From Candidatus Melainabacteria bacterium (lineage in GTDB: Bacteria > Cyanobacteriota > Vampirovibrionia > 2-02-FULL-35-15), in contig JAHFBF010000004.1 in the NCBI GenBank assembly GCA_023250195.1, forward strand, positions 5,675-69,674: a stretch of DNA of 64,000 nt. Direction: 5' to 3'. The position numbers were made by a program, and so were the translations under genes. Shown one piece after another: positions 2,105 to 38,164 of this stretch. Numbering within the stretch: position 1 is the stretch's first letter; every line of letters starts with the position of its first letter. Under the pieces are notes generated by a model. That model was not told the DNA's origin, ran no database searches, and was given only the letters and a program-made list of their open reading frames with translations.

Positions 2105-3889
2105 TTATTTTAAAGTACTTCCTATCAATATCCCGTTTGCATAGTAATTGCCGCTTGGTGAGTCAGGCAGGATGTCATAAGTGTGACTGTAAATATAAGG
2201 TATAAGCTTGGCTTCAACTACAAGGCGTTCACCCAGAAGATCTCCCATTTTTAAATCTTTAAATATTTTTCCATCTGCTGTAGGATGCCCTGGGCTTATT
2301 TCAAGTATTGTTCCGTCATTAAATGTAACTTTCAAAACTTTGTGATTTTTAACAGGGGTTTTGCTTACTTTTTTTACTTTTACGATTTTCCCATTATCAG
2401 TAAGCACAAGCTCTCCTTCTCTTATATCGGCAATTCTTTTTTGTTCACCATTAGTTTTAATCCTTGTATCTGGTGAACAGCAGATAGGAACAGGGCATCC
2501 CAGAGGATAGCAGCCATAAGCAGGTAAACCACTGCATTCTGTTCCTTCTGGGCATGAAAGTTCCTGTCCGTTTTCTCCACGGCAATTTCCTTTTGGGCTG
2601 CAATCTTTAATTTCACCTGAGCTTGATGAAACAGTCCTGCAGCCCAGGAAGTCAGGACTGCAGGTAGTGCTATTTAAACACTCTTTTACTTCGCAGGTTT
2701 CATTTTCTTTACAGCAGAATGAGCCGCATTTATTTTTACAAACATCTCTCGGGCAGTTCTTTAATGGGCTTAGCTTCTTTGCTGAAAAAGTTTGATCATT
2801 GTCAGTTGAAATAAGCAAATGTTTTTTATCAGTTAACTTTAAATTTAATTCTTTAGTTAAAGCATTTTCATTTTTAATGGTTATAGAAACCTCGTTATTT
2901 GAAATTATATTTTGTGAGTCTATAATTCCATTTTCAATATCCCCCACAATATTAACCATTCCTTCTAAATTGTTATTTTTAACGCAGAGCTTTAATGTAA
3001 TTGCTTTTAAGCCATCACATTTTTCACAATGACCACATTTGTGACATGTTTGAGGAATAAATGTAAAACCTTTAGTACAAAGAATTGCAATTTGTGGACA
3101 GAGAATGCAGTCAGGTCCTTCATCATTAGGACTTATACCAGCACCATTACAGTCTAATGATTTGCCTCTCCATATCCCGGAGAAATCTTTATTTAAAGTA
3201 ATTGAACTTCCAGAGCTTGATTGTGAAAATTGACATGGATCAGCAAAGTAAAATATCTGATTACATTTTCCGTTTGAACAAGAATAATTTTTAAATGTAC
3301 CGCTGCTTGAACAAATGCCTGAAGGACAATCATCATCAGTAGAACAACTTAAATCTCCAGAACTTGAAGAATTGCATTCCCCTTCAGTGACTTTTTTAAT
3401 ACCAATGGCACTTGCAAAGCATTTGTTGCTGTAAGTTATACCATCACAGCCACAGACAGGTGCAAATTCTAAAGTACAGGCAATATCATCTCCACCTTTA
3501 ACGCAGGTATTTGTATCAAACCTAAAACCTTTTTGACATTTACATTTGGTTTCGATGTCTCCAGAAGAACTTGATGATAGGCAGACACACTTGCAGATTC
3601 TCGGATCATAAGTTCCAAATTTTGATTTACATCCGGCAGGTTCACCAGCACAATCAGTTTGTATTTGCGGGCAGTCAGAGGGTATACAATGAGCACATTC
3701 ATTGCATGTTTGTGGAACAGCAACTTCATTGCTGGAGCAATTAGGAATTTCTTGAATACAAGGTATACATTCAGCTGGGCTGCTTGATGAGCTTGAACTT
3801 ATCTGCCCATTACTTTTTTCTAAAGATAAAAAAGTAATGCTTGTAAGCAGTATAAAAAGAATAAATGTAACTAAGCTTATTTTTTTCAT
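2105..3889 (-). CDS. secreted Cys-rich protein with a Kazal-type inhibitor domain and a C-terminal Hint (bacterial intein-like) domain
   Basis: Signal peptide MKKISLVTFILFILLTSITFLS; poly-Ser linkers; more than 60 Cys. The Kazal signature is CTLEFAPVCGCDGITYSNKCFASAIGIKKVTEGEC. The repeated motif QTC.(E/K)C(A/G)HC occurs. The C-terminus CCSPDTRIKTNGEQKRIADIREGELVLTDNG...ISPGHPTADGK...YDILPDSPSGNYYANGILIGS matches Hint blocks A, B (TxxH-like) and F/G, but lacks the terminal HN. Confidence 0.6.
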   Translation of the reverse strand: MKKISLVTFILFILLTSITFLSLEKSNGQISSSSSSSPAECIPCIQEIPNCSSNEVAVPQTCNECAHCIPSDCPQIQTDCAGEPAGCKSKFGTYDPRICKCVCLSSSSSGDIETKCKCQKGFRFDTNTCVKGGDDIACTLEFAPVCGCDGITYSNKCFASAIGIKKVTEGECNSSSSGDLSCSTDDDCPSGICSSSGTFKNYSCSNGKCNQIFYFADPCQFSQSSSGSSITLNKDFSGIWRGKSLDCNGAGISPNDEGPDCILCPQIAILCTKGFTFIPQTCHKCGHCEKCDGLKAITLKLCVKNNNLEGMVNIVGDIENGIIDSQNIISNNEVSITIKNENALTKELNLKLTDKKHLLISTDNDQTFSAKKLSPLKNCPRDVCKNKCGSFCCKENETCEVKECLNSTTCSPDFLGCRTVSSSSGEIKDCSPKGNCRGENGQELSCPEGTECSGLPAYGCYPLGCPVPICCSPDTRIKTNGEQKRIADIREGELVLTDNGKIVKVKKVSKTPVKNHKVLKVTFNDGTILEISPGHPTADGKIFKDLKMGDLLGERLVVEAKLIPYIYSHTYDILPDSPSGNYYANGILIGSTLK

Positions 3890-9754: not shown

Positions 9755-10009
9755 ATGCTAAATGTAATTAAAGCATTTTTGGTAACAGTTTTAGTTTTTT
9801 CTATTTGCAGTCTAAGCTCATATGCAACTTCACCGGAAGAATACTGTAAAATCCATGAAGATAGTGGTGCCCCCGGTGTATGCACTACCCGTGGAAACTG
9901 TGTAGTACTAACCACAAATCTTGGGATAGACGAGTGCAAATTGTGTACTGATGGTGGCTGCGAATTAGTTGATAATTGTGACCAATGTCCTGAATCTGAA
10001 CCTGAATAA
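9755..10009 (+). CDS. small secreted Cys-rich peptide (84 aa, about 10 Cys)
   Basis: RBS taaggagatttcaatATG; signal peptide MLNVIKAFLVTVLVFSICSLSSYA; mature region CKIHEDSGAPGVCTTRGNCVV...CKLCTDGGCELVDNCDQCPESEPE. Confidence 0.5.
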   Translation: MLNVIKAFLVTVLVFSICSLSSYATSPEEYCKIHEDSGAPGVCTTRGNCVVLTTNLGIDECKLCTDGGCELVDNCDQCPESEPE

Positions 10010-10023
10010 AACAAGTCTTAAAA

Positions 10024-10320
10024 ATGAATTTTTTATTTCATATCATTTTGCTAATTATGCTTTGCATGGTACTTAATCCTGTGTTTGCAAATGATCCGGA
10101 TGCTCCTGATATAAATGTGGAAGATAATGCTTTAAGCTCTGATGAACAAAATGATGAAATAACTGATGATGAAGACCAGGACAAAGAATCTTCTTTTAAA
10201 GAGAGAAAAAAACATAAGAAGAAAAAAGAAAAGAAAGTAAATCATGCAAGTCTAAGACCAGGACAGGATAGCGATAAAGATATTATTTTAGAGCTAGATG
10301 AAAAACTAATTGACAATTAA
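10024..10320 (+). CDS. secreted acidic/lysine-rich low-complexity protein
   Basis: A signal peptide, then DPDAPDINVEDNALSSDEQNDEITDDEDQDKE...KKHKKKKEKK. The RBS is weak. Confidence 0.35.
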   Translation: MNFLFHIILLIMLCMVLNPVFANDPDAPDINVEDNALSSDEQNDEITDDEDQDKESSFKERKKHKKKKEKKVNHASLRPGQDSDKDIILELDEKLIDN

Positions 10321-10352
10321 AGAATTTTTATAATTCTCAACTATCAATTTTA

Positions 10353-11042
10353 TTAGTCTCTATTCCTGCTTCCAAATAAAATCATTGCCCAGCGAATAAT
10401 TTCAATCAAGCTAAACAGCGCAGCTGCAATATAGGTAAAAGCACATGCCTGTAAAATTTTCTTTGCATTTTCTTTCTCATCTGAAGAAATATAACCAGAG
10501 CCCTCCAGCACTGGTACAGCGCGGGCAAAGCTTGCATCAAGCTCAACAGGTAACGTTATTACCTGAAAAAAGAAAATACCAATGTACATAAACAACCCAA
10601 TCATTGCTGTTAATTTCCAGATTGGACTTGCTAAAAATGCAGTAAGCATTATGCTAAACATAAGCAACATTGGACCAAACTGACAAATTTGAATAACTGG
10701 AGCAACTGCAGTTCTCAATCTCATAAACCCATAATTTTCAGCATCCTGAATAGCATGACCACATTCATGTGCAGCAACAGTTACTGCAGCAAGTGATGTT
10801 CCATTATAAAAATTTTCAGATAATCTTACTGACTTACTCTGTGGATCATAATGGTCACCTTGACTTGTCGCTTCAACGGTAACTGCATTAAGTCCGTGTC
10901 TGTTTAATATTTCCTTTGCAATTTCTGCACCGGTTCTTCCAATTGAGGAAGGTTCATTTGAATATTTATTTAAGATACTTCTAACCCATAGTTGAGGAAG
11001 AATTATTAAAGCTATTCCAGTTATCCATAATAATGTCAGCAT
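10353..11042 (-). CDS. membrane zinc metallopeptidase (YugP-like, PF04298-type)
   Basis: HExxH motif AAHECGHAIQ, TM segments at both ends, and overall YugP-like architecture. Confidence 0.65.
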   Translation of the reverse strand: MLTLLWITGIALIILPQLWVRSILNKYSNEPSSIGRTGAEIAKEILNRHGLNAVTVEATSQGDHYDPQSKSVRLSENFYNGTSLAAVTVAAHECGHAIQDAENYGFMRLRTAVAPVIQICQFGPMLLMFSIMLTAFLASPIWKLTAMIGLFMYIGIFFFQVITLPVELDASFARAVPVLEGSGYISSDEKENAKKILQACAFTYIAAALFSLIEIIRWAMILFGSRNRD

Positions 11043-25939: not shown

Positions 25940-26012
25940 GCGCCCTTAGTTCAGTTGGTAGAACGTTGGTCTCCAAAACCAAATGTCGTGGGTTCAAGTC
26001 CTACAGGGCGCG
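25940..26012 (+). tRNA. tRNA-Trp (anticodon CCA)
   Basis: GCGCCCTTAGTTCAGTTGGTAGAACGTTGGTCTCCAAAACCAAATGTCGTGGGTTCAAGTCCTACAGGGCGCG has an anticodon loop CTCCAAA and a T-arm GGTTCAAGTCC. Confidence 0.85.
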
Positions 26013-26027
26013 AGTTTTTATATAGGT

Positions 26028-26093
26028 TTAGACAAGCTGAAACTTCCGTCGGTTAACTACTTACACAGGATTGGATTTGTTCACCTTAGGCCG
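26028..26093. repeat. family-A MITE-like repeat just 3' of tRNA-Trp
   Basis: tagacaagctgaaacttcc...ggatttgttcaccttaggccgaacaaatcc. Confidence 0.55.
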
Positions 26094-26103
26094 AACAAAT
26101 CCT

Positions 26104-27042
26104 TCATACTAAAATAGGTCTCTTCAATTCACTCATATCAGGAAGCTTAAAATTTACATTCTCTTCTTTCAACTTCAATATCTCAACGGGTGCACTAAGT
26201 TTATTAATCAAAGCTTCTACAAGTGTTTCAGGAGCAGAAGCTCCGGAACTTACTCCTACAATTTTTCCATAAAGTTCTTTTGGTACTTTATAAGTATATG
26301 GATCAGGCACAAGCTCTGCAGGCGTACCGGCAAGTTTAGCTACTTCCACAAGGCGGCATGAATTTGAAGAATTTTTTGATCCGATAATTAAAATATAGTC
26401 TGTAACTTTTGCCAGTTCCTTAACTGCATCCTGACGATTTTGTGTAGCATAGCAGATATCCTGGGCTCCAGGAAGTAAAACTTCTTTATATTTCCCCTTT
26501 AAGGATTCAATAATTTCTTTTGTATCATCTACTGACAATGTAGTTTGTGTAGCGATAAAAACCTTTCCAAGATCAGGCGAAAGCTTATCTACGTCTTCAA
26601 CAGATCCGACCAGAAAACAAGAATTATTCGGCAGATTACTCATAGCACCGATAACTTCCTGATGATCTTTATGTCCAATATAAATAACCTTGTAACCTTT
26701 TTTCCAGGCACCCACCATTTCAAGATGAACCTTAATTACAAGTGGACAGGTAGCATCAACTACTGCCAGATTTCTTTGGTTTGCTTCTTTAAAAACTCTT
26801 ATTTCTGATCCATGAGCAGAAAGTATTACACAGTTTCCATCAGGTACTTCATTTAACTCATCTACGAAAATCACTCCACGGGATTCAAAATCTTTTTTTA
26901 TATGTTCATTATGGACTATTTCATGCCTTACATAAATTGGCGAACCGAGCTTTTCCAAGGCAAGATTTACAATATCAATTGCTCTTATTACCCCGGCACA
27001 AAAGCCTCTTAGAGATGCTAAAACGATTTTTGTGACCATCAA
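26104..27042 (-). CDS. ispH: 4-hydroxy-3-methylbut-2-enyl diphosphate reductase
   Basis: ASLRGFCAGVIRAIDIV N-terminus, conserved Cys ligands and the LytB fold. Confidence 0.9.
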   Translation of the reverse strand: MMVTKIVLASLRGFCAGVIRAIDIVNLALEKLGSPIYVRHEIVHNEHIKKDFESRGVIFVDELNEVPDGNCVILSAHGSEIRVFKEANQRNLAVVDATCPLVIKVHLEMVGAWKKGYKVIYIGHKDHQEVIGAMSNLPNNSCFLVGSVEDVDKLSPDLGKVFIATQTTLSVDDTKEIIESLKGKYKEVLLPGAQDICYATQNRQDAVKELAKVTDYILIIGSKNSSNSCRLVEVAKLAGTPAELVPDPYTYKVPKELYGKIVGVSSGASAPETLVEALINKLSAPVEILKLKEENVNFKLPDMSELKRPILV

Positions 27043-27108
27043 GTTTACCTTCGTCGTGATATTTTAACATTAAATGGGTCTGTAAAAGATTCGAGGATAA
27101 AGCCTCTT

Positions 27109-27184
27109 GTCATTCTGAATGAAATGAAGAATCTCATTAGGTGATAGCAGTTTTGTGAGATTCTTCGCTGATGCTCAGAATGAC
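27109..27184. repeat. family-B MITE-like repeat
   Basis: gtcattctgaatgaaatgaagaatctc...gagattcttcgctgatgctcagaatgac. Confidence 0.65.
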
Positions 27185-27230
27185 ATCTTCGAATTCTTTT
27201 CACCCCCCCATAACGCAATAAGTTATTATC

Positions 27231-27268
27231 CAGGGACAGGTTTGCATTTATAGCAAACCTGTCCCTGG
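27231..27268. repeat. perfect 15-bp-stem hairpin CCAGGGACAGGTTTGCatttatagcGCAAACCTGTCCCTGG
   Basis: Seen in the sequence. It lies downstream of ispH on the minus strand. Confidence 0.55.
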
Positions 27269-27492
27269 TTATGAGCTGCATAGAAACAGCGAAATAATCT
27301 GCGTAGCAGTTATTTCGCGTTTTAGAAAGTTCCCATTTGTTAGGGAGAATTTACCTTGGATTAGTTGAGTTTTTAACCATTTTCGCTCTAGAAATAAATA
27401 ACTTTATAAACATGCTTGCATTGTTTTTTATGATGATATACTACTTCTTTGTAAAAAAGTTCTTTTCGGTAAGACTTTATAAGGAGTAAAAT

Positions 27493-27891
27493 ATGAAGAA
27501 GAATTTGTTTTTATTTTTACTAGTTGTTAGCTTCTTGTTTCCAATGACCACAATACAAGCTAAAGCTGATGGCGAACATGTCCTTAAACAAACTACAGGG
27601 GTTGTTTTAGGAGTTGGGATAGGACCAGTTGTCGGTGCAATGAGAGGCTTTGTAAAAGGCTGGCTTTGGGGCACAGATGCAACTGCTGAAGCACTTGGAA
27701 ATAAAGATGGTACCCCACATAAAATAATTGGATTTGCAACTGGTGGTGTACTTGGTGCAGCAGCTGGTGGAGTATCAGGCGTATTAATGGGTGCATATGA
27801 TGGCATCAAATACGGCTGGGACAAACCATGGTCAGCAGAAAACTTTAGCTGGGCAGGTAAGTTTACTGATTATGATCCATTCAAATGGTAA
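27493..27891 (+). CDS. secreted glycine-zipper (GxxxG-rich) small protein
   Basis: RBS ataaggagtaaaatATG; signal peptide; GVVLGVGIGPVVGAMRG...GFATGGVLGAAAGGVSGVLMGAYDG. Confidence 0.5.
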   Translation: MKKNLFLFLLVVSFLFPMTTIQAKADGEHVLKQTTGVVLGVGIGPVVGAMRGFVKGWLWGTDATAEALGNKDGTPHKIIGFATGGVLGAAAGGVSGVLMGAYDGIKYGWDKPWSAENFSWAGKFTDYDPFKW

Positions 27892-27949
27892 TAATTAGGG
27901 GTAGGTTTCAAACCTGCTTCTACTAGTAAATAAGAACTAAAGAAAAAAA

Positions 27950-27977
27950 AGCAAGCTGAAAGGCTTGCTTTTTTTAT
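27950..27977 (+). terminator. rho-independent terminator
   Basis: aagcaagcTGAAAGGcttgcttttttt has a GC-containing stem followed by a T-run. Confidence 0.7.
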
Positions 27978-27985
27978 TGCACCCG

Positions 27986-28040
27986 AGAAAAAAACTCTGT
28001 GAGCTTTGTTCCAGAGATAGTTGATTTGAAGTGAGGCTTT
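27986..28040. repeat. about 55-bp dispersed repeat (second copy at 56228-56275)
   Basis: aaaaactctgtgagcttgYtccagagatagttgatttgaagKgagg appears at both loci. Confidence 0.55.
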
Positions 28041-28184
28041 TAGAAGATCATCTTTCTATTATAGGATAATGATCTCGGATTTATATCTCTTGAGCAATTT
28101 AAAGGGTTTAAGATTTTTTAAAAAGACCGAATATATAGTTTAGACAGAAGGCTAATAATTAAAAATAAGTGTGGAGGTTTTTTT

Positions 28185-28784
28185 ATGATAAGAAATTCAA
28201 TTTTTTTAATTGCTGTTATATCTTTACTTGTTCTGTATTCATCTAAAGACATTGCTGCTCAAGCAGCAGCCACTGTTCCTGTCAACGTTACTGTAAATGG
28301 AGCTTTGGTTATAACAGATGCTTCAAATGATTCAATGGCGGGTGCAAATCCAACTATAAATGTCAATTTATCAGTTACTCCTGATCTTGGTGCAGCTACT
28401 GTTACTGGTCAAGCAAACTTCAGAGTCCGTACAAATAGAAATGCATGGAGACTTACAGCTCAAAGGACTGTCTCTAATGCCGGTGGCACTGGACTTGCAG
28501 ATACAGACGTATCCTTAACGGTTGCAAAATCCGCTGGCTCAACAGGAAATGCAAATGCAGGAGCACTGGTGGCACCATTTACAGCCTCGACTACCTTGAA
28601 TAGTATTCCAACTGCAACCAGTGTAGATGTAGTAAGTGGAACTGCAAAAACATCAACTGCAAAAGATGGTGCAAACACAAATAATTATTTTCAGGTAAAC
28701 ACAACCTATGGAGTAGCACCAGACTTTTTCTACACACCGGGTACGTATAGTACAACAATTACATATAATTTAGTCTCACCATAG
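28185..28784 (+). CDS. secreted pilin-like protein, paralog 1 of 5 (putative fibre subunit)
   Basis: Signal peptide. Conserved blocks ATVPVNVTVNG.LVI.DA.ND, NFRVRTNRN.WRLTAQRT and C-terminal PDFFY.PGTYSTTITYNLVSP, the last resembling the G-Y-x-T-h-T-V terminal beta-strand of Csu/spore-coat-U-type pilins. Confidence 0.5.
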   Translation: MIRNSIFLIAVISLLVLYSSKDIAAQAAATVPVNVTVNGALVITDASNDSMAGANPTINVNLSVTPDLGAATVTGQANFRVRTNRNAWRLTAQRTVSNAGGTGLADTDVSLTVAKSAGSTGNANAGALVAPFTASTTLNSIPTATSVDVVSGTAKTSTAKDGANTNNYFQVNTTYGVAPDFFYTPGTYSTTITYNLVSP

Positions 28785-28865
28785 AAATAAATTCCTATTT
28801 ACTATCATTTTAGATCTCCGAAGTATTAAGACAGGAGCAAATCATCATAAGATTGGAGGTCTGAA

Positions 28866-28895
28866 ATGAAGATGATTGTTTTTCTATGGCTAGGA
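28866..28895 (+). promoter_or_regulatory. conserved motif copy 1 (GAAGATGATTGTTTTTCTATGGCTAGGAAA), possible leader peptide or regulatory site
   Basis: It is preceded by GGAGG at 7-nt spacing and could encode MKMIVFLWLGNN. Copies occur at 31909-31937 (direct) and 33664-33688 (inverted). Confidence 0.4.
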
Positions 28896-29061
28896 AACAA
28901 TTAATATCCACCCAGGATTTGCTCCTTGCTTTTAAGTTCAGGTGTTATTCCTAAATAAAAGAGTTTAGTACTAATATCCCTTTTTGTTTTAAAAATCTTT
29001 TTTAATAAGAAATCTGTGGAATGTAATTAAAGATCAGGTAACTGTTTCTAATTATTTTCCT

Positions 29062-31812
29062 ATGAAATCTTCTTTACAAAGAAAATATATTTCATTTGTT
29101 TTGTCTTTATTGACAAGCATTTGGTTTGTTTATGTTTTACCGGCCGCTTCCCAGCTTATATCAACCCCGGTAAAAAATAATTTACAGAATCAGGGGACAG
29201 GTCAAAATCCAGATGAGCAGAATGACAATAACAAAGCAACGCCTCTACTTGAACCACCGGAAGTTATACTCAATAATCAAAAAATAATATTTAACAGAAA
29301 ACCAATTTTTGATAATGAGGTATGGCTTTTCCCTCTTGAAGAAATTGCTATGAAATTACAGGATAAAGTAATCACAGATCTTGTAAGCGGGACAATTACA
29401 ATTCAAAGATCCAGGGGGAAATCAACTGTTCAGTTAAACATTAGAAATGGAATAGTAACCATAAATAACAGACCATTTAAGACATTGTTTGGATATAACA
29501 GAATAATTCCAGGAGCTGATTCACAAATGGTTCCAACAAGTGCACTTGTTATGCTTCTTGGTTTAACGTCAAAAGACAACGAAGAAGGGAAATTAATTTT
29601 AGTTAACACTGTTGGAGAAAGTAGTAATGCTGTTGGCACAGTACAACCGCTTCCCAGAAAAAATGTAAAAGATTTATTAGTAGATTACTTAACAATTACA
29701 AATTCATTTGATTGGCTGCAGAGCCAATCATTTTATACAAAAAAAACAGAGATAAACAGTGGCTTTCACAATGACAACTATGCAATAACTTCTGATTTTC
29801 TGGTAAAGTCAGGGACTAATACCCCATTAATTAATTTTGATACCGGTAATTTTTCATATTATAAAAATGCTTCTCCATTTCAAGTACATGTTGGTGATAA
29901 ACCCTTAAGTTTAGTAAAGTCACCTCTTATAGGTGGGGTTGTTATGCGTGGTCTACAGATTCAGACTGGAGGTCCATTATTAAAAGACAGCAAATTTGTA
30001 TTTGGAACCGGGTTTTTACCAACAAATGGAAAAATTTTAGGTAGAAATCTTTCATTTGTAAAATATGGAAGACTTGCAGAAGTTGCAGAATGGTCAACTT
30101 CACCAAATAAGCCATGGCAGTTTTCAATTGGGGAAGCTATTTACAACGATTCTATAATAAATCAACTTGTCAGATCAAAACAAAGTGGTGGCTTATTTGC
30201 ATTAAGTGCTACAAAAACAGGAAAATTTTTTGAAGGAGACTCTAACCTGGCATTTGGAATTACAAGTGACAAGGTTACAGGAAAAGCAAGTCAGGGTCCT
30301 GGTGGAGATATTTTAGTAAGACTAAAACCAAAAGACTGGATAAGCTTTTTTTCAAAAGGTGCCTATTACTCGCCCGGGTTCTTTTCATTATCAGGAAATC
30401 CTTTTTATCACGATAGAAACGAAGCAACCTTTGGATTAAATGTCGCTCCTCCAAGATCAAATATCGGAGTCAGTCATTCAGTAGGAAAATATAACTTAAA
30501 TTCCCAGAAACCAAACAACTATAGTGTTACAAATGTTTTTGCTTCAGCAACACCATTCAAAAATGGTCCAACCATATTATCAAGTTATTCAAAGAATGAT
30601 TCACAGGTGTCTTCCACAAGAGCTATTGACAACATACTATTCCCAATAAACATGACAAACATTTCTACAGTTGATTTCGAAACTTTAATCGAAAGAAGAA
30701 CCAATTCATTTTTTAGAACAAGCTTAATGAAAAACTGGAGAACTGTAAACTTTTCTTCCAGTGTAAATTATTTTACTTTTGCCGATGATAAACCTTTAAA
30801 ACTGACTGCGGTGGGAGGGCAGACGGTAACAAAATTCCTGACATATGATTTAAATATAAACAAATCAATTAATAGATTTGTTGGATTGCAGACATATCTG
30901 CAAGGAAGTAAATTATATAAGCAGGTAAGATTTGGAGTAAATGTTGGACCTCTTTTAGATAATAAATTAAACTTTTTATTGCAGACGGGTGCTCTTTTGC
31001 CGGAACAGGAAAGCCCCAGTTCACTTTATAGTTTGAATTTGAATTATCAAGTAAACAAAAAAACCCAGCTTAGTATGCGGTATGATAAAACAAAATTTTT
31101 GACATCTCTTTCAGGCATCTACCAATATAACCTGCGCGGAAAAAGTCCAGGTGCACTGTCTGAAATTAGAGAAGCACAGACTATTGGCAGAATAAAAGGG
31201 AGAGTTCTGGTACTTGAGGAAAATCCGAGAAAATCAACTGAGCAAAATAAAATTATCCTGCCTGGAACAACCAGAGAAAGAGGTGCTGAAAATATAAGAA
31301 TTCACCTCGGAAACTATACCATTACCACAAACAAAGACGGAACATTTGAATTCCCAAGTCTTACTCCGGATATTCATAGAGTTAGGATTGAATTCTCTGA
31401 CTTGCCTTCTTATCTAACATCAATTACTCCTGAAGCTGTAGATATAAAAGTAGAGGCCGGAAAAGAAACTAATTTTGATTTTATTCTTGCTTACTTTGGA
31501 ACACTGAGTGGAAAACTTCAGCTGGCTAATGAGCCTACAATGAAGCTGGAAGAAGAACCGGAGCTTCAGGATATCAGGGTTTACCTGGAAGGGACTGATT
31601 TTGAGACTCTAACAAATGTGGATGGTTCATTTGTCCTGGGAGATGTTAAACCAGGGAAATATAAATTAAAGGTTGACTCTGATTTCCTTCCAAAAGAATT
31701 GGAGATTGCTCCAAAAGATCTGGAAATTGAGGTTCGCGGTAAAGAAAAGGTAGAAAATGTACAACTTCCAATTAAATACAAAACCAAATCAGAAGAAATA
31801 AAAGTATTTTAG
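29062..31812 (+). CDS. large secreted beta-rich outer-membrane protein, putative usher-like pore with C-terminal carboxypeptidase-regulatory-like beta-sandwich domains
   Basis: 916 aa with a signal peptide. The long central region has alternating-hydrophobic beta-strand patterning (N/S/T/Y/F-rich), typical of an OM beta-barrel. C-terminal modules such as GRIKGRVLVLEEN..., YLEGTDFETLTNVDGSFVLGDVKPGKYKLKVDSD look like CarbopepD_reg/Cna-B-like folds. Confidence 0.35.
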   Translation: MKSSLQRKYISFVLSLLTSIWFVYVLPAASQLISTPVKNNLQNQGTGQNPDEQNDNNKATPLLEPPEVILNNQKIIFNRKPIFDNEVWLFPLEEIAMKLQDKVITDLVSGTITIQRSRGKSTVQLNIRNGIVTINNRPFKTLFGYNRIIPGADSQMVPTSALVMLLGLTSKDNEEGKLILVNTVGESSNAVGTVQPLPRKNVKDLLVDYLTITNSFDWLQSQSFYTKKTEINSGFHNDNYAITSDFLVKSGTNTPLINFDTGNFSYYKNASPFQVHVGDKPLSLVKSPLIGGVVMRGLQIQTGGPLLKDSKFVFGTGFLPTNGKILGRNLSFVKYGRLAEVAEWSTSPNKPWQFSIGEAIYNDSIINQLVRSKQSGGLFALSATKTGKFFEGDSNLAFGITSDKVTGKASQGPGGDILVRLKPKDWISFFSKGAYYSPGFFSLSGNPFYHDRNEATFGLNVAPPRSNIGVSHSVGKYNLNSQKPNNYSVTNVFASATPFKNGPTILSSYSKNDSQVSSTRAIDNILFPINMTNISTVDFETLIERRTNSFFRTSLMKNWRTVNFSSSVNYFTFADDKPLKLTAVGGQTVTKFLTYDLNINKSINRFVGLQTYLQGSKLYKQVRFGVNVGPLLDNKLNFLLQTGALLPEQESPSSLYSLNLNYQVNKKTQLSMRYDKTKFLTSLSGIYQYNLRGKSPGALSEIREAQTIGRIKGRVLVLEENPRKSTEQNKIILPGTTRERGAENIRIHLGNYTITTNKDGTFEFPSLTPDIHRVRIEFSDLPSYLTSITPEAVDIKVEAGKETNFDFILAYFGTLSGKLQLANEPTMKLEEEPELQDIRVYLEGTDFETLTNVDGSFVLGDVKPGKYKLKVDSDFLPKELEIAPKDLEIEVRGKEKVENVQLPIKYKTKSEEIKVF

Positions 31813-32017
31813 TACTAGGAGTAAGATTCTAATTTTTACTGTCTAGATATTTAATACCGATAGTACTTCTTGGTAACCAAAAAGGATTATTGAAAATAAC
31901 GGTCAATGATTTAGAAGATGATTTTTTCTTATGGCTAGGAAAAAGTTTACATTCAATTTATTTCTAAATCGAAATCTTTGTTTTAAATAACTTTTGGGTT
32001 TCTGAAAGGAAAACAAT

Positions 32018-32617
32018 ATGTTAAAACAAACGCGAGGTTTATTACTAGTATTACTTTTACTTTGTGCAAATTCAGTAGAATTGCCAGAGGTAAAAGCAGC
32101 AGCTTCTGTACCATTGGCTGTTACAGTTAACGGTTCACTCGTTATTTCTGATGCTGACAATGATGCAATGGCTGGAGTAAATCCTACAAAGAATGTTAAT
32201 TTGACTGTAACGCCTGATCTTGGACAGACAATACAAAGTGGAAATGCCAACTTTAGGGTAAGGTCAAATCGTTCAACTTGGAGGCTTACAGCTCAGAGGA
32301 CAGCTTCTGATGCTGGTGGTACGGGTATTACCGATGCGGATTTGCTGGTTGACATTGCAAAATCAGCCGGTTCAAATGCAAATGCAAATGCTGGTACATT
32401 AGTATCTCCATTTACCGGGCAAACCAACTTGTCAAGTATTACCACTGTAGCTGCTGTAGATGTTGTTAACGGAACTGCCAAAACATCATCTGCAAAAGAC
32501 AATGCTAATGCCAACAACTGGTTTCAGGTAAGCACTACATACAGCATCCAACCTGACTTTTTCTATGCACCGGGAACGTTTAGTTCTACAGTAACTTACA
32601 ACCTGGTTTCTCCATAG
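32018..32617 (+). CDS. secreted pilin-like protein, paralog 2
   Basis: Same conserved blocks as 28185..28784, with C-terminus TVTYNLVSP. Confidence 0.5.
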   Translation: MLKQTRGLLLVLLLLCANSVELPEVKAAASVPLAVTVNGSLVISDADNDAMAGVNPTKNVNLTVTPDLGQTIQSGNANFRVRSNRSTWRLTAQRTASDAGGTGITDADLLVDIAKSAGSNANANAGTLVSPFTGQTNLSSITTVAAVDVVNGTAKTSSAKDNANANNWFQVSTTYSIQPDFFYAPGTFSSTVTYNLVSP

Positions 32618-32627
32618 AAGTTGTTTT

Positions 32628-32706
32628 GTCATTCTGAACGAAGTGAAGAATCTCTGATTAATCGATAGCGGTTTATGAGATTCTTCGCCTTCGGCTCAGA
32701 ATGACA
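32628..32706. repeat. family-B MITE-like repeat between pilin paralogs 2 and 3
   Basis: gtcattctgaacgaagtgaagaatctc...gagattcttcgccttcggctcagaatgac. Confidence 0.65.
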
Positions 32707-32818
32707 TTTAGATCTATTGAAATATTTATACCAGTACATTATTTCAGTACTAAATTACCAGATAAATTTCAGAAACTTGTGGAAAATAAATATATGGAAC
32801 TAGCCTTAGAAAACATCA

Positions 32819-33421
32819 ATGAGATTAAACAAATCTTTTATCTTCACATTAATTGTGCTGTTGATTTTATTTACAGTACCAATAAAAACGTTTTCCCAAT
32901 CAGCAACAGTACCAATAAATATAAATGTTAACGGAACACTTACAATTTCTGATGCCTCAAATGATTCAAGCGCAGGTAAAAATCCAACCATAAACGTAAA
33001 TCTCTCTATAACGCCGGATCTTGGAGCTGCACCTGCTACAGGAAATGCAAACTTCAGGATAAGAACAAATAGATCTAACTGGAGACTCACTGCACAAAGG
33101 ACTTCTGAAGTTGATACAGGCCCAACAAACATTGTGGCAATGGACATAGCATTATTAGTTACTACTCAAGCCGGGACAAATGCAAATGCAATGGCTGGAA
33201 CACTTGTAGCTCCATTTACCGCAACAACAGACTTAAGCAACATATCAACAGCTGCACCGGTAGATGTAGTCAGCGGTACAGCTAAAACATCAACAGCAAG
33301 AGATAATACAAATACAAACAATTACTTCCAGATTAATACTCAATACAGCATTCTTCCTGACTTCTTCTTCCAGCCAGGGACCTGGAGAACAACCATAACC
33401 TATAATCTGGTTAGCCCTTAG
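32819..33421 (+). CDS. secreted pilin-like protein, paralog 3
   Basis: Conserved blocks, with C-terminus TTITYNLVSP. Confidence 0.5.
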   Translation: MRLNKSFIFTLIVLLILFTVPIKTFSQSATVPININVNGTLTISDASNDSSAGKNPTINVNLSITPDLGAAPATGNANFRIRTNRSNWRLTAQRTSEVDTGPTNIVAMDIALLVTTQAGTNANAMAGTLVAPFTATTDLSNISTAAPVDVVSGTAKTSTARDNTNTNNYFQINTQYSILPDFFFQPGTWRTTITYNLVSP

Positions 33422-33440
33422 AGAAGAAATAACTACATGC

Positions 33441-33517
33441 GTCATTGCGAGCCCGAAGCAATCTCCCTAACTTATTCACATTTGTGAGATTGCTTCGTCG
33501 CTAATGCTCCTCGCAAG
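33441..33517. repeat. family-C MITE-like repeat (GTCATTGCGAG...CTCGCAAGA) between paralogs 3 and 4
   Basis: gtcattgcgagcccgaagcaatctc...gagattgcttcgtcgctaatgctcctcgcaagaac. Confidence 0.6.
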
Positions 33518-33692
33518 AACATAATGTGTTTTATCCCCAAGGGTTTTCCTTAGACTTTTTAAATCAGCTACCCTTCTTAACTAAATATTATTTGAATACT
33601 GCAAAAATTGACGATGGTAGTATCTATGAACTAGACTTAAAAGACTATACTTTAAGTGTAGATTCCTAGCCAAAACAATCATCTTCCATTTC

Positions 33693-34307
33693 ATGACCAC
33701 TCAAAAAAACACAACAAGTTTTTTCTTAGTACTTATAGTCTCTTGTTGTGTTTTTTTTATTTCAGGTGATTTAACTGCAAGCTCAAATCAGGCTACCGTA
33801 CCCATTAATATCACTGTTGCCGGCAAACTAATTATTACTGATGCTGAAAATGATAATAACTCCAGTGCTAATCCAACCCTGAATGTGAATTTAAAATTAG
33901 TCCCTGATTTAAGCAATTCAACTGTTTCAGGTTCATCTTCAGTCAGAATAAGAACAAATCTGAATTCATGGAAGCTGACTGCTCAGAGAAGTAATTTAGC
34001 TGACCCACTGGTTAACATAGATCCCAGAGATATTGCACTAAATTTTACAACTCAGGCTGGGTCAAAAGCAAATCCAAATGCAGGAAAATTATTATCTCCA
34101 TTTAATAAAGCTGCTGATTTAAGCTACATATCAACAAACAGCCCTACAGATGTTTTAATCGGAGTAAGTAAAACCTCCCTTGATAAAGATCCTGAAAATA
34201 GAAACAACTGGTTTCAGCTTACATCAAACTACAGCGTTTCACCGGATTTCTTCTACGAAATCGGAGAATGGAATACAACTGTCAGCTATAGTTTAGTTAG
34301 TCCGTAG
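33693..34307 (+). CDS. secreted pilin-like protein, paralog 4
   Basis: Conserved blocks; more divergent; C-terminus TVSYSLVSP. Confidence 0.5.
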   Translation: MTTQKNTTSFFLVLIVSCCVFFISGDLTASSNQATVPINITVAGKLIITDAENDNNSSANPTLNVNLKLVPDLSNSTVSGSSSVRIRTNLNSWKLTAQRSNLADPLVNIDPRDIALNFTTQAGSKANPNAGKLLSPFNKAADLSYISTNSPTDVLIGVSKTSLDKDPENRNNWFQLTSNYSVSPDFFYEIGEWNTTVSYSLVSP

Positions 34308-34312
34308 ATTAT

Positions 34313-34466
34313 GTCATTGGAGGATATCTCAAAACTCTGTCTATGGAGATTAGCTATTTTTCTGACAAAATAGAAAGAGTGAAAGTAGCTTGTCATTCCC
34401 GCGAAAGCGGGAATCCAGTATCGGTAGCAGTCTTGTCTGGATTCCCTGGTCGAGCCAGGGAATGAC
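34313..34466. repeat. compound MITE (E unit plus D unit) between paralogs 4 and 5
   Basis: gtcattggaggatatctcaaaactctgtctatgg...gtcattcccgcgaaagcgggaatccag...ctggattccctggtcgagccagggaatgac. Its reverse complement matches 48759-48912. Confidence 0.7.
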
Positions 34467-34506
34467 ATTTATATTCAGCCATCATTCAAAGACTTATAAT
34501 TAACAT

Positions 34507-35061
34507 ATGACCTTTCCAAGAATTCTTTTTCTGTTTATATTTATTTTTTTAATCCTAGTATTTCCAATAAATTCATTGGCCTGTTTATCAATTACAGATG
34601 ATTTAAATACTCCAAACCCAATTATAAATGCAAGTTTTAGTTTTCAGCCTGATATAAATCCTTTTACTGATTGCTGGTCAGGTGCAATGAGAATTCGCAG
34701 TGATAAAAATGGCTGGAGACTTGTAGCCACGAGAGTTGGACCAAGTTCTTCAAATGCAGAAGGGAACTCTCAGGATAACGTTATGGCAAATGATATAACA
34801 CTTAATATATCAGTTCAGGCATTTGGGCAGGCAGATTCAAATGGTGCGATCTTAGTCTCTCCCTTTTCTTCACAGACAGAGTTATCTTCAATCCAATCCG
34901 GAACTTTTATAATATCGGGAGTTAAAAAATCAAGCAATAGTTGCTCTTCGTTCAATCCAAGCTACTACAAAGTTACCAAAAAACTTTGTTTGTTCCGGGA
35001 TTTTATCTTTAACCCCGGAGCATATAATGGTCAGGTATCTTATATTCTTATTAATCCATAA
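34507..35061 (+). CDS. secreted pilin-like protein, paralog 5 (most divergent, 4 Cys)
   Basis: It shares W.GAMRIRSDKNGWRLVATR and a C-terminal NPGAYNGQVSYILINP with the family. Confidence 0.45.
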   Translation: MTFPRILFLFIFIFLILVFPINSLACLSITDDLNTPNPIINASFSFQPDINPFTDCWSGAMRIRSDKNGWRLVATRVGPSSSNAEGNSQDNVMANDITLNISVQAFGQADSNGAILVSPFSSQTELSSIQSGTFIISGVKKSSNSCSSFNPSYYKVTKKLCLFRDFIFNPGAYNGQVSYILINP

Positions 35062-35098
35062 ACTAACAATGAGGGATATTAAATTTAAACTTAAAACT

Positions 35099-36079
35099 AT
35101 GAATAATTTAAACTTAAAGTTGTTTTCTTTATTAGCCAGCCTGATTATTATTTCTATATTTTGTGATCAGGCATTGGCCTGGACTGTTTCACCGGTCAGG
35201 TTTGAAGTAAAAGCACAAAAAGGGAAAGAGTACACTTTAACTTTTGCAGTTTTAAATGAAAGTCAGCTCTATCAAAAAAGGTTTGAGATTCAGACTGATG
35301 ACTGGATTATAAACAAAAATAATGACTTCCTTCGAAAAGCATTTACTGAGGGGGTCGAAAATAAACATTCAGCAACATCCTGGATAAAAGTTACACCAAT
35401 GCAGTTTGTAGTGCCGCCGGGAGAAACAAAAAATATAAGGTTTACTATTTCTGTCCCAAATGATGTTTCTGCAGATGGAGATTATACAGCAGGAATTTTT
35501 GTTGGGGAAAAAAATATTGAAAAGCCGCCAAAAGGGGAAAAAATAGTTCACATAAAGCAGGATACATTTATTGGAGTCATTGCCTATGTACAAATTGGGG
35601 AAGAAAAACATTCTGTCATTCTAAAAAATTTGAAAGTAAAATCAAAGTCGATTTCCAAAGGGTTAAACAAAGTTACAATCCTGCCTACTTATGAAAGTCA
35701 GGGGAATGTTCATGCAAGAGGACAAATACAAATAAAACTGGAGCCACTTTCAAAGATTGAGATAAAAGAAACAAAAGCAGAAGTTGAAAAGAGTAATGAT
35801 CAGGTAAATTTAAAAAACACAAATGCAATGTCTGTTGAACCTGCTCCAGAGGAAGAAGATAAGATAAAAGAACTTAATGCCGGTGAAGTAGTGATTCTTC
35901 GAGAATCAGAGGTTACCTACCCAATTGATTTTCCTTTCCCGGTTCCAGAAAACAGTGAATGGAAAATTACAGTAAAAACTGATTTTGGAGATTATGCTCC
36001 TGTTTTGGTTGGGACAAAAACTTATAAGGTGCCTTTGGCTGAAATGCCGGTAATATCGCCTAAAGAAAAGAAGAAGTAA
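35099..36079 (+). CDS. putative PapD-like periplasmic pilus chaperone with a C-terminal extension
   Basis: Signal peptide MNNLNLKLFSLLASLIIISIFCDQALA. VSPVRFEVKAQKGKEYTLTFAVLNESQ...WIKVTPMQFVVPPGETKNIRFTISVP resembles the PapD N-domain (VTPPxFRLxPGxxQxxRI). The listed track start at 35027 overlaps paralog 5. Confidence 0.4.
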   Translation: MNNLNLKLFSLLASLIIISIFCDQALAWTVSPVRFEVKAQKGKEYTLTFAVLNESQLYQKRFEIQTDDWIINKNNDFLRKAFTEGVENKHSATSWIKVTPMQFVVPPGETKNIRFTISVPNDVSADGDYTAGIFVGEKNIEKPPKGEKIVHIKQDTFIGVIAYVQIGEEKHSVILKNLKVKSKSISKGLNKVTILPTYESQGNVHARGQIQIKLEPLSKIEIKETKAEVEKSNDQVNLKNTNAMSVEPAPEEEDKIKELNAGEVVILRESEVTYPIDFPFPVPENSEWKITVKTDFGDYAPVLVGTKTYKVPLAEMPVISPKEKKK

Positions 36080-36140
36080 AAGCAGGTTTTAAATCTGCTT
36101 CAATAGAAAAAGAAATAAAGAAAATTTAGGCAGAAATTAT

Positions 36141-36620
36141 TTACACCCACAAATTTCCTAAATATTCTAATTTGCTAAACCCTTCGTTATATGCTTTTAT
36201 GATTTTATCTGCAACAGGAGGATAAAGAGTGATTTTTTCTAACTCAAGAATAGGTTTGTAAGCTGCGTCAGCTAACATGGGTTCATCACCTACTTTTAAT
36301 TCACCACCAAGAACTTCACCGGTTGCATAAATATTTATTATATGCCTGCTTCTGTCCGGTGCAATTGCTTCTGATAAAAATACAACTTTTCCAAATTTAA
36401 TATCCAGATTTGTTTCTTCTTTTAATTCTCTGACACCACAGGTTGCAAAGTCTTCACCATATTCAATTCGCCCACCTGGTAAAACCCAGTAATATCTATT
36501 TGCTTTTTTATGCTGAACAAGCAGTATTTCTTTTTTTTCATTAACAATAATTACTGAAACCCTGAAATTAGGTCTCTGCGGAAAACTTTTTCTAGTTCCA
36601 AAGTTAGGATTTGATGACAT
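36141..36620 (-). CDS. NUDIX hydrolase
   Basis: Nudix box LPGGRIEYGEDFATCGVRELKEETNLD. Confidence 0.8.
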   Translation of the reverse strand: MSSNPNFGTRKSFPQRPNFRVSVIIVNEKKEILLVQHKKANRYYWVLPGGRIEYGEDFATCGVRELKEETNLDIKFGKVVFLSEAIAPDRSRHIINIYATGEVLGGELKVGDEPMLADAAYKPILELEKITLYPPVADKIIKAYNEGFSKLEYLGNLWV

Positions 36621-36640
36621 ATTGGATTTATATTCTTAAT

Positions 36641-36726
36641 TTGCTTCGTCGGCTTTGCAAAATACCTCCGATAGATTCAATCTATCGCCATCCAGGTTTT
36701 GCCAATTTAATTGGACAAAACCTTTC
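36641..36726. repeat. family-A MITE-like repeat
   Basis: ttgcttcgtcggctttgcaaaat...ggttttgccaatttaattggacaaaacc. Confidence 0.55.
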
Positions 36727-36835
36727 TTTATGAATTTTGTTAGATTAGTCATCTTGCAAATGGGGAGAAACTGTAACTAGTAAATATTATACACGATTAA
36801 ACACTAAATTAAACAGATAAGATAACATTTTCTAC

Positions 36836-38164
36836 ATGGCAGTTTCATTCTTAAACTTATTAGACAAATTTAGACCTCATAAAGTTTATAAACCATCACC
36901 TCTTTTAGGTGTAACTCAATTTTTTGTTTTAGCTTCTTTCTGGTTTTTAATTATTTATGGAGCAACAGTAGTTACAACAATTTTATTTGCTAAGTTTATT
37001 CCGGATATTTTATACAATTTAAAACTATTTGCAATTGCAGATATAGTTTATTACCTTGCTCCTTTAATTGCAGTTATGGTTCTTATACCGGCAAATGCTA
37101 CTTTTCTTGTTTTAAATGAAAGAAAAATATTAGCATTACTTACAGTAAGATCCGGACCAAACCGTGTTGGACCAAATGGCTTTTTACAAACTGCCGCTGA
37201 TGCCGTAAAGCTTTTATTTAAAGAAGATATCACTCCGAAAGGTGCTGACAAATTGCTTTTTACCCTGGCACCAGTAATATTTTTTGCACCAAGTGTTATT
37301 GCATTTATTCCAATTTTAGCTGTTGCAACCAACAACAGTGGTCCGTTTATTTCATGTGACCTGTCTATAGGGTTACTTTTTATTCTTGCTGTTTCATCAA
37401 TTCCTGTTTTAGGACTTGTTCTTGGGGGCTGGGCTAGTAACAATAAATATTCTTTAATTGGCGGTTTGCGCAGTGCAGCGCAGGCAATAAGCTATGAAAT
37501 CCCAATGGTTCTAACAATAATAAGTATGATTGTTTTAACGGGCTCAATTAATTTAAATGAAATTGCAAACAATCAGGTTGGGGGAATTTTAAAATGGAAC
37601 TTATTTGCATTTGGTAATTTACATTTACTGCTAAATTTATTTCCACTTGGAAAGAATTCTCTTATAGGTTTATATGCACTTGTACTTTTAATGGTCTGTT
37701 TTATTTTGTTTTTTATGTATCTTGTATCTGCCTGTGCAGAGGTAAACAGAATTCCGTTTGATCTCCCGGAAGCTGAAAGCGAGCTTGTTTCAGGATACAA
37801 TACAGAGTTTACTGGAATGAAATTTGCACTTTTCTTCCTGGCTGAATACACGGCATTATTTATAATTTGCTGTCTTGCTTCAATTTTATTTCTTGGAGGA
37901 GGGCATCTGCCTGTTTCAATCGGAGATGAAAATAAAATAATTGAATCACTTGCAAATACACGCTTTGGAGATTTAAGCTGGCTTTTACCATCAACCGTAT
38001 TAATGCTGAAAGCATATGTTTTAATCTTTGTTTCTGTTTGGGTCAGAGCTACTTTGCCAAGATTACGCTATGATCAACTCATGACGTTTAGTTGGAAATT
38101 TCTAATCCCTCTGTCATTAATAAATATTTTTGTAGTAGCAGTGCTGGTAAGTTTAAAACCATGA
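36836..38164 (+). CDS. nuoH: NADH-quinone oxidoreductase subunit H with an N-terminal extension of about 50 aa
   Basis: LNERKILALLTVRSGPNRVGPNGFLQTAADAVKLLFKED is the NuoH signature. About 85 residues, including an extra hydrophobic segment, precede it, against about 35 in E. coli. Confidence 0.85.
   Translation: MAVSFLNLLDKFRPHKVYKPSPLLGVTQFFVLASFWFLIIYGATVVTTILFAKFIPDILYNLKLFAIADIVYYLAPLIAVMVLIPANATFLVLNERKILALLTVRSGPNRVGPNGFLQTAADAVKLLFKEDITPKGADKLLFTLAPVIFFAPSVIAFIPILAVATNNSGPFISCDLSIGLLFILAVSSIPVLGLVLGGWASNNKYSLIGGLRSAAQAISYEIPMVLTIISMIVLTGSINLNEIANNQVGGILKWNLFAFGNLHLLLNLFPLGKNSLIGLYALVLLMVCFILFFMYLVSACAEVNRIPFDLPEAESELVSGYNTEFTGMKFALFFLAEYTALFIICCLASILFLGGGHLPVSIGDENKIIESLANTRFGDLSWLLPSTVLMLKAYVLIFVSVWVRATLPRLRYDQLMTFSWKFLIPLSLINIFVVAVLVSLKP

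Follow-up and report, generated by a model that had tools for sequence, protein, structure and literature searches.

The window analysed here, a 64,000-nucleotide stretch of contig JAHFBF010000004.1 from a Candidatus Melainabacteria bacterium, carries a cluster of pilin-like paralogs with a gene for an usher-like outer-membrane protein, and within this cluster a short sequence motif occurs three times, once in inverted orientation. The genes run in the order ispH, a gene for a 132-amino acid protein, paralog 1 (p1), the usher-like gene (U), paralogs 2 to 5 (p2, p3, p4 and p5), a gene for a 350-amino acid protein, a NUDIX gene and nuoH, and the same order was found in every related contig of sufficient length. 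Copy c1 of the motif (GAAGATGATTGTTTTTCTATGGCTAGGAAA, positions 28868–28897 of the plus strand, an exact match) comprises a box A, GAAGATGATT, and a box B, GGCTAGGAA. It is placed in the intergenic stretch that separates p1 (28185–28784, plus strand) from U (29062–31812, plus strand), which is probably the 3' untranslated region (UTR) of p1; the p1 transcript would then carry c1. Copy c2 (GAAGATGATTTTTTCTTATGGCTAGGAAA, 31914–31942, plus strand) lies 76 nt 5' of the ATG of p2, so that c1 and c2 are same-direction repeats on either side of the usher-like gene. Copy c3 (GAAGATGATTGTTTTGGCTAGGAA, 33663–33686) is inverted, on the minus strand, and lacks 5 nt (TCTAT) that c1 has; it stops 6 nt short of the ATG of p4 at 33693. 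Between c2 and c3 are p2 (32018–32617) and p3 (32819–33421), both on the plus strand. The gene next to c3, p4 (33693–34307, plus strand), encodes a divergent 204-amino acid member of the pilin-like family with 45% identity to p1, and is the target in the interpretation proposed below.

An earlier reading of the window, made from the sequence only, had reported three copies of a motif in this pilin locus, one of them inverted. All three were found, with its coordinates 1–5 nt off: the sequence it gave for the first copy is correct and the position (28866–28895) is shifted, the second copy exists but not at 31909–31937, and the inverted copy, which it put at 33664–33688, does adjoin p4, at the distance of 6 nt given above. 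What that reading overlooked is the position of c3 in the 5' UTR and start region of p4, its complementarity to c1 and c2, and the co-evolution of the copies.

Searches of Pfam, NCBIfam and PDB sequences returned no match for p1 to p5 and only flanking accessory domains for the usher-like protein (Cu_amine_oxidN1 at the N-terminus and CarboxypepD_reg at the C-terminus), and fold searches were therefore needed to place them. An AlphaFold2 model of p1 (199 amino acids; predicted local distance difference test score, pLDDT, of 86) had as its nearest PDB folds CfaB, CS17, CooA, FimA/G, CsuA/B and TasA, with E-values from 7e-4 and modest template modelling (TM) scores of 0.35–0.48. These nearest folds are donor-strand-exchange fibre subunits. 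The model of the 916-amino acid usher-like protein has a pLDDT of 65 and low TM-scores, and shows a long series of strands alternating up and down; the top ten Foldseek matches in the PDB are all FimD and PapC ushers (E-values of 1e-15 to 5e-11). Given these fold matches of p1 and the 916-amino acid protein, the labels "pilin" and "usher-like" that the sequence-only reading had used are reasonable at the level of fold. The 350-amino acid protein (35027–36079) gave weak matches to Ig-like domains (ASH, WxLIP and fn3) and may be the chaperone of the cluster, while p1 is probably the major subunit. Taken as a whole, the region from 28185 to 36079 appears, from these models, to encode a divergent pilus system of chaperone-usher-like type, missed by sequence profiles. 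The search for paralog homologues gave 195 sequences, most without a source name; all of those with one are from Candidatus Melainabacteria.

The motif is rare in the sequence available. Searching the window with a gapped pattern gave 2 matches, against 0.00 expected from 100 shuffles. A profile hidden Markov model (HMM) built from 24 copies was run on 174 kb, made up of the window (64 kb) and ~110 kb from nine orthologous loci, and its matches were confined to three orthologous positions. For 22 of these copies the E-values lay between 1e-9 and 7e-4; c3 of locus L018 and c1 of locus L020, which diverge most, scored only E ~0.08, and the next matches had E > 3. Since the HMM matches only at these three positions, the motif is no common repeat in the available sequence, nor is it scattered through random contexts, the finding that the sequence-only reading had named as one that would speak against it. 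Public collections were scanned with the gapped motif as well; they do not include the source genome. Among species-representative genomes nine stretches matched, a number near chance expectation, and the only orthologous locus among them was L007, from Melainabacteria RIFCSPLOWO2_02_FULL_35_15. The JGI metagenomes yielded one stretch, L014, which is the same locus as L007. Rfam 15 covariance models gave no relevant match (E ≤ 1) in positions 26000–38000 of the window.

Comparison with orthologous loci from nine other contigs (L007, also seen as L014, L015–L022 and L024), whose usher-like proteins are 60–85% identical to that of the window, revealed that the copies and their placement are conserved. 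Copy c1 is present at the orthologous position, between p1 or the 132-amino acid protein gene and U, in L015, L016, L017, L018, L019 and L021, and in a divergent form in L020. Copy c2 occurs between U and p2 in L007/L014, L015, L016, L017, L019, L021, L022 and L024, and is missing from L018 and L020, where the alignment has a clean gap the size of the module. Each of the nine loci containing p4 has the inverted copy c3, a constant few bases from the p4 ATG, and c3 never occurs in the absence of a sense copy; the sense copy is c2 only in L007, L022 and L024, and c1 only in L018. Locus L018 also has a Ser/Thr protein kinase gene (9910–11010, minus strand) inserted antiparallel between p3 and the promoter-like region of p4, and this kinase-bearing locus, without c2, keeps c1 and c3. 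The motif is the best-conserved portion of its intergenic regions: the c2 core (31920–31939) is 93–95% identical across species, compared with 40–47% just downstream. Relative to c1 and c2, c3 has an internal deletion of 5–8 nt in six of the nine loci, while c3 of L017, L022 and L024, which we call ancestral-type, is a near-perfect full-length inverted copy. Judged from these sequences, the motif is real and has been kept across about ten Melainabacteria species.

As RNA of the plus strand, c1 and c2 are predicted to form hairpins. The minimum free energy (MFE) structure from RNAfold places the c1 hairpin at 28873–28903, with 13 bp, a single bulged U, CUA-UGGC-UAG at the apex and a lower stem formed by UGAUUGUUUU and GAAACAAUUA. 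The c2 hairpin, predicted by both RNAfold and RNAalifold, spans 31920–31947 and has 12 bp and the same UGGC loop. Seven apical pairs are retained across 15 copies of c1 and c2, and all one-sided changes are of the wobble type. Counting aligned pairs by genome, the hairpin has 18 G·U combinations against 3 A·C, and the closing stem around c1 has 7 against 2. This excess of G·U over A·C fits an RNA read from the plus strand, the complementary strand folding less well.

The c1 hairpin is enclosed by a longer closing stem, whose 5' arm (AGGAGCAAATC, 28833–28843) and 3' arm (GATTTGCTCCT, 28917–28927), both on the plus strand, also bracket a GGAGG sequence and a mini-open reading frame (mini-ORF) described below. 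MFE folding found this stem independently in all seven c1-bearing loci that were folded, a set that does not include L021. In an arm-swap comparison over eight loci, cognate arms pair with a mean energy of -22.0 kcal/mol and non-cognate arms with -15.6 kcal/mol, a difference obtained in 4 of 20000 permutations. With the arms placed in a register set by hand, 88.5% of the aligned cells are paired, double-sided changes are seen at 12 of 12 pairs and none of 500 shuffles reaches the observed score. The c2 module (31907–31971, plus strand) has an analogous MFE closing stem, formed by TGATTTAGAAG (31907–31917) and TTTCTAAATCG (31961–31971). On the sequence comparison, both c1 and c2 clearly belong to structured modules of sense-strand RNA. 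In L015, L016, L017 and L019 the c1 closing stem is directly followed by GC-rich, terminator-like stem-loops with a run of T after them; the window has no clear equivalent, and no alternative terminator/antiterminator pairing was identified.

Copy c3 occupies a different kind of site. The region read on the plus strand as GATTCCTAGCCAAAACAATCATCTTCCATTTC (33661–33692, with the motif itself on the minus strand) corresponds to positions -32 to -1 of the p4 mRNA, the usual place of a Shine-Dalgarno sequence, and p4 has none. A consensus scan found a promoter-like site, TTGACG and TAGACT separated by an 18 nt spacer, at 33608–33637 on the plus strand, and its -10-like block, ACTAGAC, hardly varies among the eight aligned loci. 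Transcription of p4 would thus start downstream of this site and give a 5' UTR of ~50 nt that holds c3; this UTR is predicted to be almost unstructured. Because c3 is inverted within the 5' UTR and start region of p4, it is, as RNA, complementary to c1 and c2, and the similarity to the motif continues into the region of the p4 start codon. Cofolding of a c1 or c2 module with the p4 leader gave a net gain, after the cost of opening all local structure, of -14 to -45 kcal/mol, compared with -1 to -10 kcal/mol for shuffled leaders. Across eight genomes the duplex energy of c1 and c2 with the start region of p4 is -33 to -55 kcal/mol, and with the starts of p1, U, p2, p3, p5 and the 350-amino acid protein gene it is -6 to -23 kcal/mol. 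The predicted complementarity is therefore extended and specific for the start codon region of p4. Partial c3-like sequence was also seen at the start of p3: CTAGCC...AAAACATCA-ATG in the window (32800–32818), CCCTAGCC abutting the ATG in L017 (10676–10683), and AGCCATAAGAAAAA-ATG in the p2–p3 intergenic region of L024. The p3 gene may be a weaker second target, or may keep a relic of the element from a p3/p4 duplication.

Within a genome the copies have changed together. All three read GAAGATGA in the window and AAAGATGA in L017 and L021. In L016 all three contain GAGAT, and the ATG ahead of box A has become ATA in both c1 and c3. L018 has TTATTG instead of TGATTG in c1 and c3, and in L022 c2 and c3 have GGCTGG in common and have both lost box A. 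Coordinated substitutions of this kind are found in at least four lineages. When genomes were permuted, the identity between cognate c2 and c3 was reached or surpassed in 3 of 5040 permutations, and that between cognate c1 and c3 in 28 of 720; for four of five p4 start regions, the cognate c1 is the best duplex partner.

Together these results suggest that RNA modules in the 3' UTR of p1 and in the leader of p2 pair with the translation start of p4 and tune its output, an interpretation that we rate at about an even chance of being right. The c1 module would be carried on sense-strand RNA downstream of the major pilin gene p1, in its 3' UTR or the intergenic region, and the c2 module in the leader of p2, each presenting a hairpin with a UGGC loop held within a longer closing stem. 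These RNAs would pair with the translation initiation region of p4 either in trans or, on a long operon transcript, in cis. The first contacts might be made by box A, which is single-stranded (GAAGAUGAU with AUCAUCUUC), or by the loop (UGGC with GCCA), with pairing then extending across ~30–45 nt, and the duplex would hide the p4 ribosome-binding site or make a target for RNase. The output of p4 would thereby be tied to the abundance of the p1 and p2 transcripts, a plausible logic being that a minor subunit is kept in proportion to the major ones. Transcription of the c1, c2 and c3 regions, the start of p4 transcription and pairing in the cell are what we infer here, and the effect on p4 could be either repression or activation. 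A broader proposal, which we hold more tentatively and as somewhat short of an even chance, is that this is an unrecognized Melainabacteria pilus family with an RNA circuit of its own, in which the two modules set the amount of p4, for example a tip or terminator subunit, by way of other pilin transcripts, regulator and target having co-evolved across the clade.

Several observations weigh against pairing with the p4 start. The case as a whole is built on comparative sequence analysis and thermodynamic prediction. A wobble-bias test of cognate c1 and c2 against c3 was neutral, with 22 wobble-compatible and 29 A·C-type transitions, and so the co-variation of the copies could also stem from gene conversion or recombination, that is, from homogenization at the level of DNA. 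The hand-set register behind the covariation score of the c1 closing stem is a further point: MAFFT and RNAalifold, applied to the whole c1 module, had put the arms one register off. The comparison of cognate and non-cognate arm duplexes is free of any register and backs the hand-registered result. The closing stem of c2 is weakly supported, at -9.5 kcal/mol for cognate and -7.4 kcal/mol for non-cognate arms (392 of 20000 permutations). In the window, GAAG of c2, part of the seed, sits in the module's own closing stem, and pairing would therefore need local opening. The hairpin is also a 9-bp palindrome in DNA, so a dimeric DNA-binding protein could be what recognizes it. Finally, the conserved GGAGG and start codon that precede c1 have no clear role in a model of RNA pairing.

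The DNA palindrome leads to a reading in which the copies are operators of a dimeric regulator that binds the dyad TTTTTCTTA-TGGC-TAGGAAAAA, possibly together with box A, so that the three sites in the cluster co-regulate the usher-like gene, p2 and p4. The hairpin is equally an inverted repeat of 9 bp with a 4-bp spacer, the copies lie 5' of genes or overlap a 5' UTR, and such sites function in either orientation. We nevertheless consider operators unlikely. The spacing between boxes A and B differs by 5–8 bp between c3 and c1 or c2 in six of nine loci, leaving c3 without one half-site; recurring coordinated substitutions among close relatives are unexpected for the sites of a conserved regulator, no gene for which is included in the conserved cluster; the similarity extends into the region of the p4 start codon; and RNA is indicated by the closing stems, which covary, and by the excess of G·U. 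It is likewise doubtful that c1 and c2 are RNA elements that act independently, as stabilizing or processing hairpins or as protein sites of the CsrA type, with c3 resembling them, through shared ancestry and occasional gene conversion, and not pairing with them. This would be in keeping with the clear structure of the two modules, with the terminator-like hairpins after c1 in four loci and with a wobble test that gave no positive sign of pairing, and L024 does have a tandem CsrA-domain gene within the cluster (3072–3518), encoding a 148-amino acid protein with two CsrA domains (Pfam E-value of 2e-12) where other loci have p1 and c1. However, it leaves unexplained why c3, a complement that has lost the hairpin, keeps the same distance to the p4 ATG in nine of nine loci and why it has repeatedly followed lineage-specific changes of c1 and c2. 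The loop is UGGC, whereas typical CsrA sites have a GGA loop, and no homologue of the CsrA-domain protein was found in the window or the other loci fetched; CsrA as an explanation on its own was dropped on the grounds of the loop and of the gene's restriction to L024.

The sequence-only reading had favored an invertible segment, with a conserved 5' leader or attenuator peptide as its alternative. If the copies were recombination sites, an unlinked recombinase would invert 31.9–33.7 kb (between c2 and c3) or 28.9–33.7 kb (between c1 and c3), and the outcome would be phase variation of minor pilins. Inverted copies do flank p2, p3 and the promoter-like site that reads over c3 into p4, so that inverting could turn p4 off through the site at 33608–33637. 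The ancestral-type c3 is near-perfect over its full length, the dyad in each copy is of the kind typically seen in recombinase core sites, recombination would account for the joint evolution of the copies, and there is precedent in Moraxella bovis and M. lacunata, where site-specific inversion involving piv toggles two pilin genes (PMC4073114). We judge inversion to be quite improbable all the same. As the sequence-only reading had noted, no recombinase is visible: Pfam scans of 40 ORFs in the window, in which RuvC was the only hit of this kind, and precomputed Pfam annotation of the neighboring genes revealed no tyrosine, serine or Piv-type recombinase in the 64 kb or beside the syntenic loci. 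A single orientation, U to p2 to p3 to p4, is present in at least 13 independent assemblies (six of this species and nine other loci), and no contig breaks at the repeats. Copy c3 has been conserved in spite of its internal deletion in six of nine loci. Recombination between the direct repeats c1 and c2 would remove the usher-like gene. Either version of the inversion would strip p2, p3 and p4 of promoter-like sequence and express no alternative pilin gene, the p4 promoter-like site would then point antisense into the usher-like gene, and the covarying closing stems around c1 would have no explanation. As to a leader peptide, the GGAGG at 28855–28859 and a 12-codon mini-ORF, MKMIVFLWLGNN*, that runs from the ATG at 28866 to the TAA ending at 28904 and contains c1 (28855–28904 with the GGAGG, plus strand) are both as had been described. 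Translation of this mini-ORF, as a leader or attenuator governing read-through into the usher-like gene, with the other copies as unrelated by-products, would suit the GGAGG placed 6–12 nt before an ATG in most c1-bearing loci (GGAGG is kept in seven of eight), the closing stem that spans the mini-ORF and the terminator-like hairpins downstream in four loci. The leader part of the proposal fares better, in that c1 and c2 lie in structured, covarying modules of sense RNA. The peptide is not conserved: L018 has a shifted frame, L016 has lost the ATG, in L021 a stop follows after two codons and L020 has a different sequence. Short ORFs beginning MARK, to which the sequence-only reading had drawn attention, do exist, with lengths that are not conserved and with the ATG missing in c3 and in several orthologous copies. 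The nucleotide motif is conserved regardless of frame, c2 is read in a different frame from c1, and c2 and c3 are left unaccounted for. With frame, start and length varying among loci, we reject the peptide, and regard this account as very improbable.

Pairing between the c1 and c2 modules and the p4 start would have relatives among known antisense systems. In IS10 RNA-OUT/RNA-IN and in the kissing hairpins of plasmid CopA/CopT, structured antisense RNAs control translation initiation. As in those systems, there is here a stable hairpin RNA with complementarity, ~30–45 nt in this case, to the 5' UTR and start codon of a target, a loop or single-stranded seed from which pairing could start, and a need for regulator and target to co-evolve. 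Unlike in those systems, the strand opposite the target is not the source of the regulator, which would come from two sense-strand copies within the same cluster, 1.7 kb and 4.8 kb upstream; these would be parts of mRNAs, one in a 3' UTR and one in a leader, and would act on a sibling gene. Both the pairing and its effect are predictions here. A second parallel is with regulators derived from 3' UTRs or carried within mRNAs, and with the cross-talk between fimbrial mRNAs in Salmonella, which, according to the account of Sterzenbach et al. 2013 given in PMC4098024, works through titration of CsrA. In that account, as in the arrangement proposed here, a non-coding part of one pilus mRNA would set another pilus gene post-transcriptionally, with a hierarchy or a fixed ratio among fimbrial components as the consequence. 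The evidence here is for direct base pairing within one cluster, unlike the mechanism so described, and a CsrA-domain gene occurs only in L024.

Invertible switches are familiar from E. coli fimS with FimB/FimE, from Hin/Gin-type invertases and from the R64 shufflon. The locus resembles them in having short inverted repeats in a pilin cluster and a promoter-like site that reads outward across one of them into a pilin gene. It differs in that no recombinase is nearby, no assembly shows an alternative orientation, the repeats are unequal because of the internal deletion, a third and direct copy flanks an essential gene, and the inverted states would bring no alternative pilin gene to expression. 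Three short repeats in a pilin locus, one of them inverted, thus need not mean a phase-variation switch, and automated "inverton" calls should be checked for conservation, position relative to start codons and covariation.

The cluster itself is comparable to chaperone-usher pili in the fold matches of the 916-amino acid protein to FimD/PapC and of the paralogs to donor-strand-exchange pilins, and in gene order, with the major subunit first, then the usher, then several minor subunits and an Ig-like candidate for the chaperone. It departs from them in that the usher, chaperone and pilins of the cluster belong to no Pfam or NCBIfam family, in the extra Cu_amine_oxidN1 and CarboxypepD_reg domains of the usher-like protein, and in that its named homologues are all from Candidatus Melainabacteria. 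The locus would extend chaperone-usher-type pili to the Melainabacteria, in a form that sequence profiles miss. We know of no description of RNA regulation of this kind in this pilus family or bacterial group. If correct, the proposed pairing would represent compact mRNA-to-mRNA regulation within a single pilus operon, in which the ratios of chaperone-usher subunits could be fixed post-transcriptionally without a dedicated small-RNA gene or regulator protein; the motif, which Rfam lacks, would also be a new structured RNA from a phylum-level group in which there is hardly any experimental genetics.

Candidate promoters within the copies were also considered. Neither c1 nor c2 contains a sigma-70 hexamer pair that is convincing by eye, and a minus-strand TTGGCT-18-TATAGT over c3 was rejected as it is not conserved in L015. 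Other sequence features were noted between the genes of the cluster. A box, TACCGATAG (31855–31863), lies 5' of c2, and its first six bases, TACCGA, are invariant in nine loci, those without c2 included. Another, (T)TGTGGAAT(G), is found 5' of both U (29014–29026) and p3 (32776–32786), and a third, AGTACTAA (28968–28975 and 32746–32753), lies 30–50 nt ahead of each of these TGTGGAA boxes. These boxes 5' of c2, U and p3 may be promoter or regulator sites common to genes of the cluster. Just 5' of the start of the usher-like gene is a small hairpin (29035–29044), CAGGTAACTG in the window, which takes the form GGG-N5-CCC with varying loop bases in L015, L016, L018 and L021.

Long palindromic intergenic repeats of the form GTCATT(C/G)...AATGAC, for example GTCATTCCCGCGAAAGCGGGAATCC...GGATTCCCTGGTCGAGCCAGGGAATGAC, are located just 3' of p2, p3 and p4 (32628–32705, 33441–33520 and 34392–34466), with a partial copy at 27107–27135; they are also present in the p1–U and p4–p5 intergenic regions of L015, and bear a likeness to repetitive extragenic palindromic (REP)-like elements or to terminators. 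At p5, a perfect TATAAT stands 6 bases 5' of the ATG at 34507 (34495–34509), leaving no space for a leader and therefore suggesting that the p5 mRNA is leaderless. L015, L017 and L018 share this arrangement, as L016 probably does.

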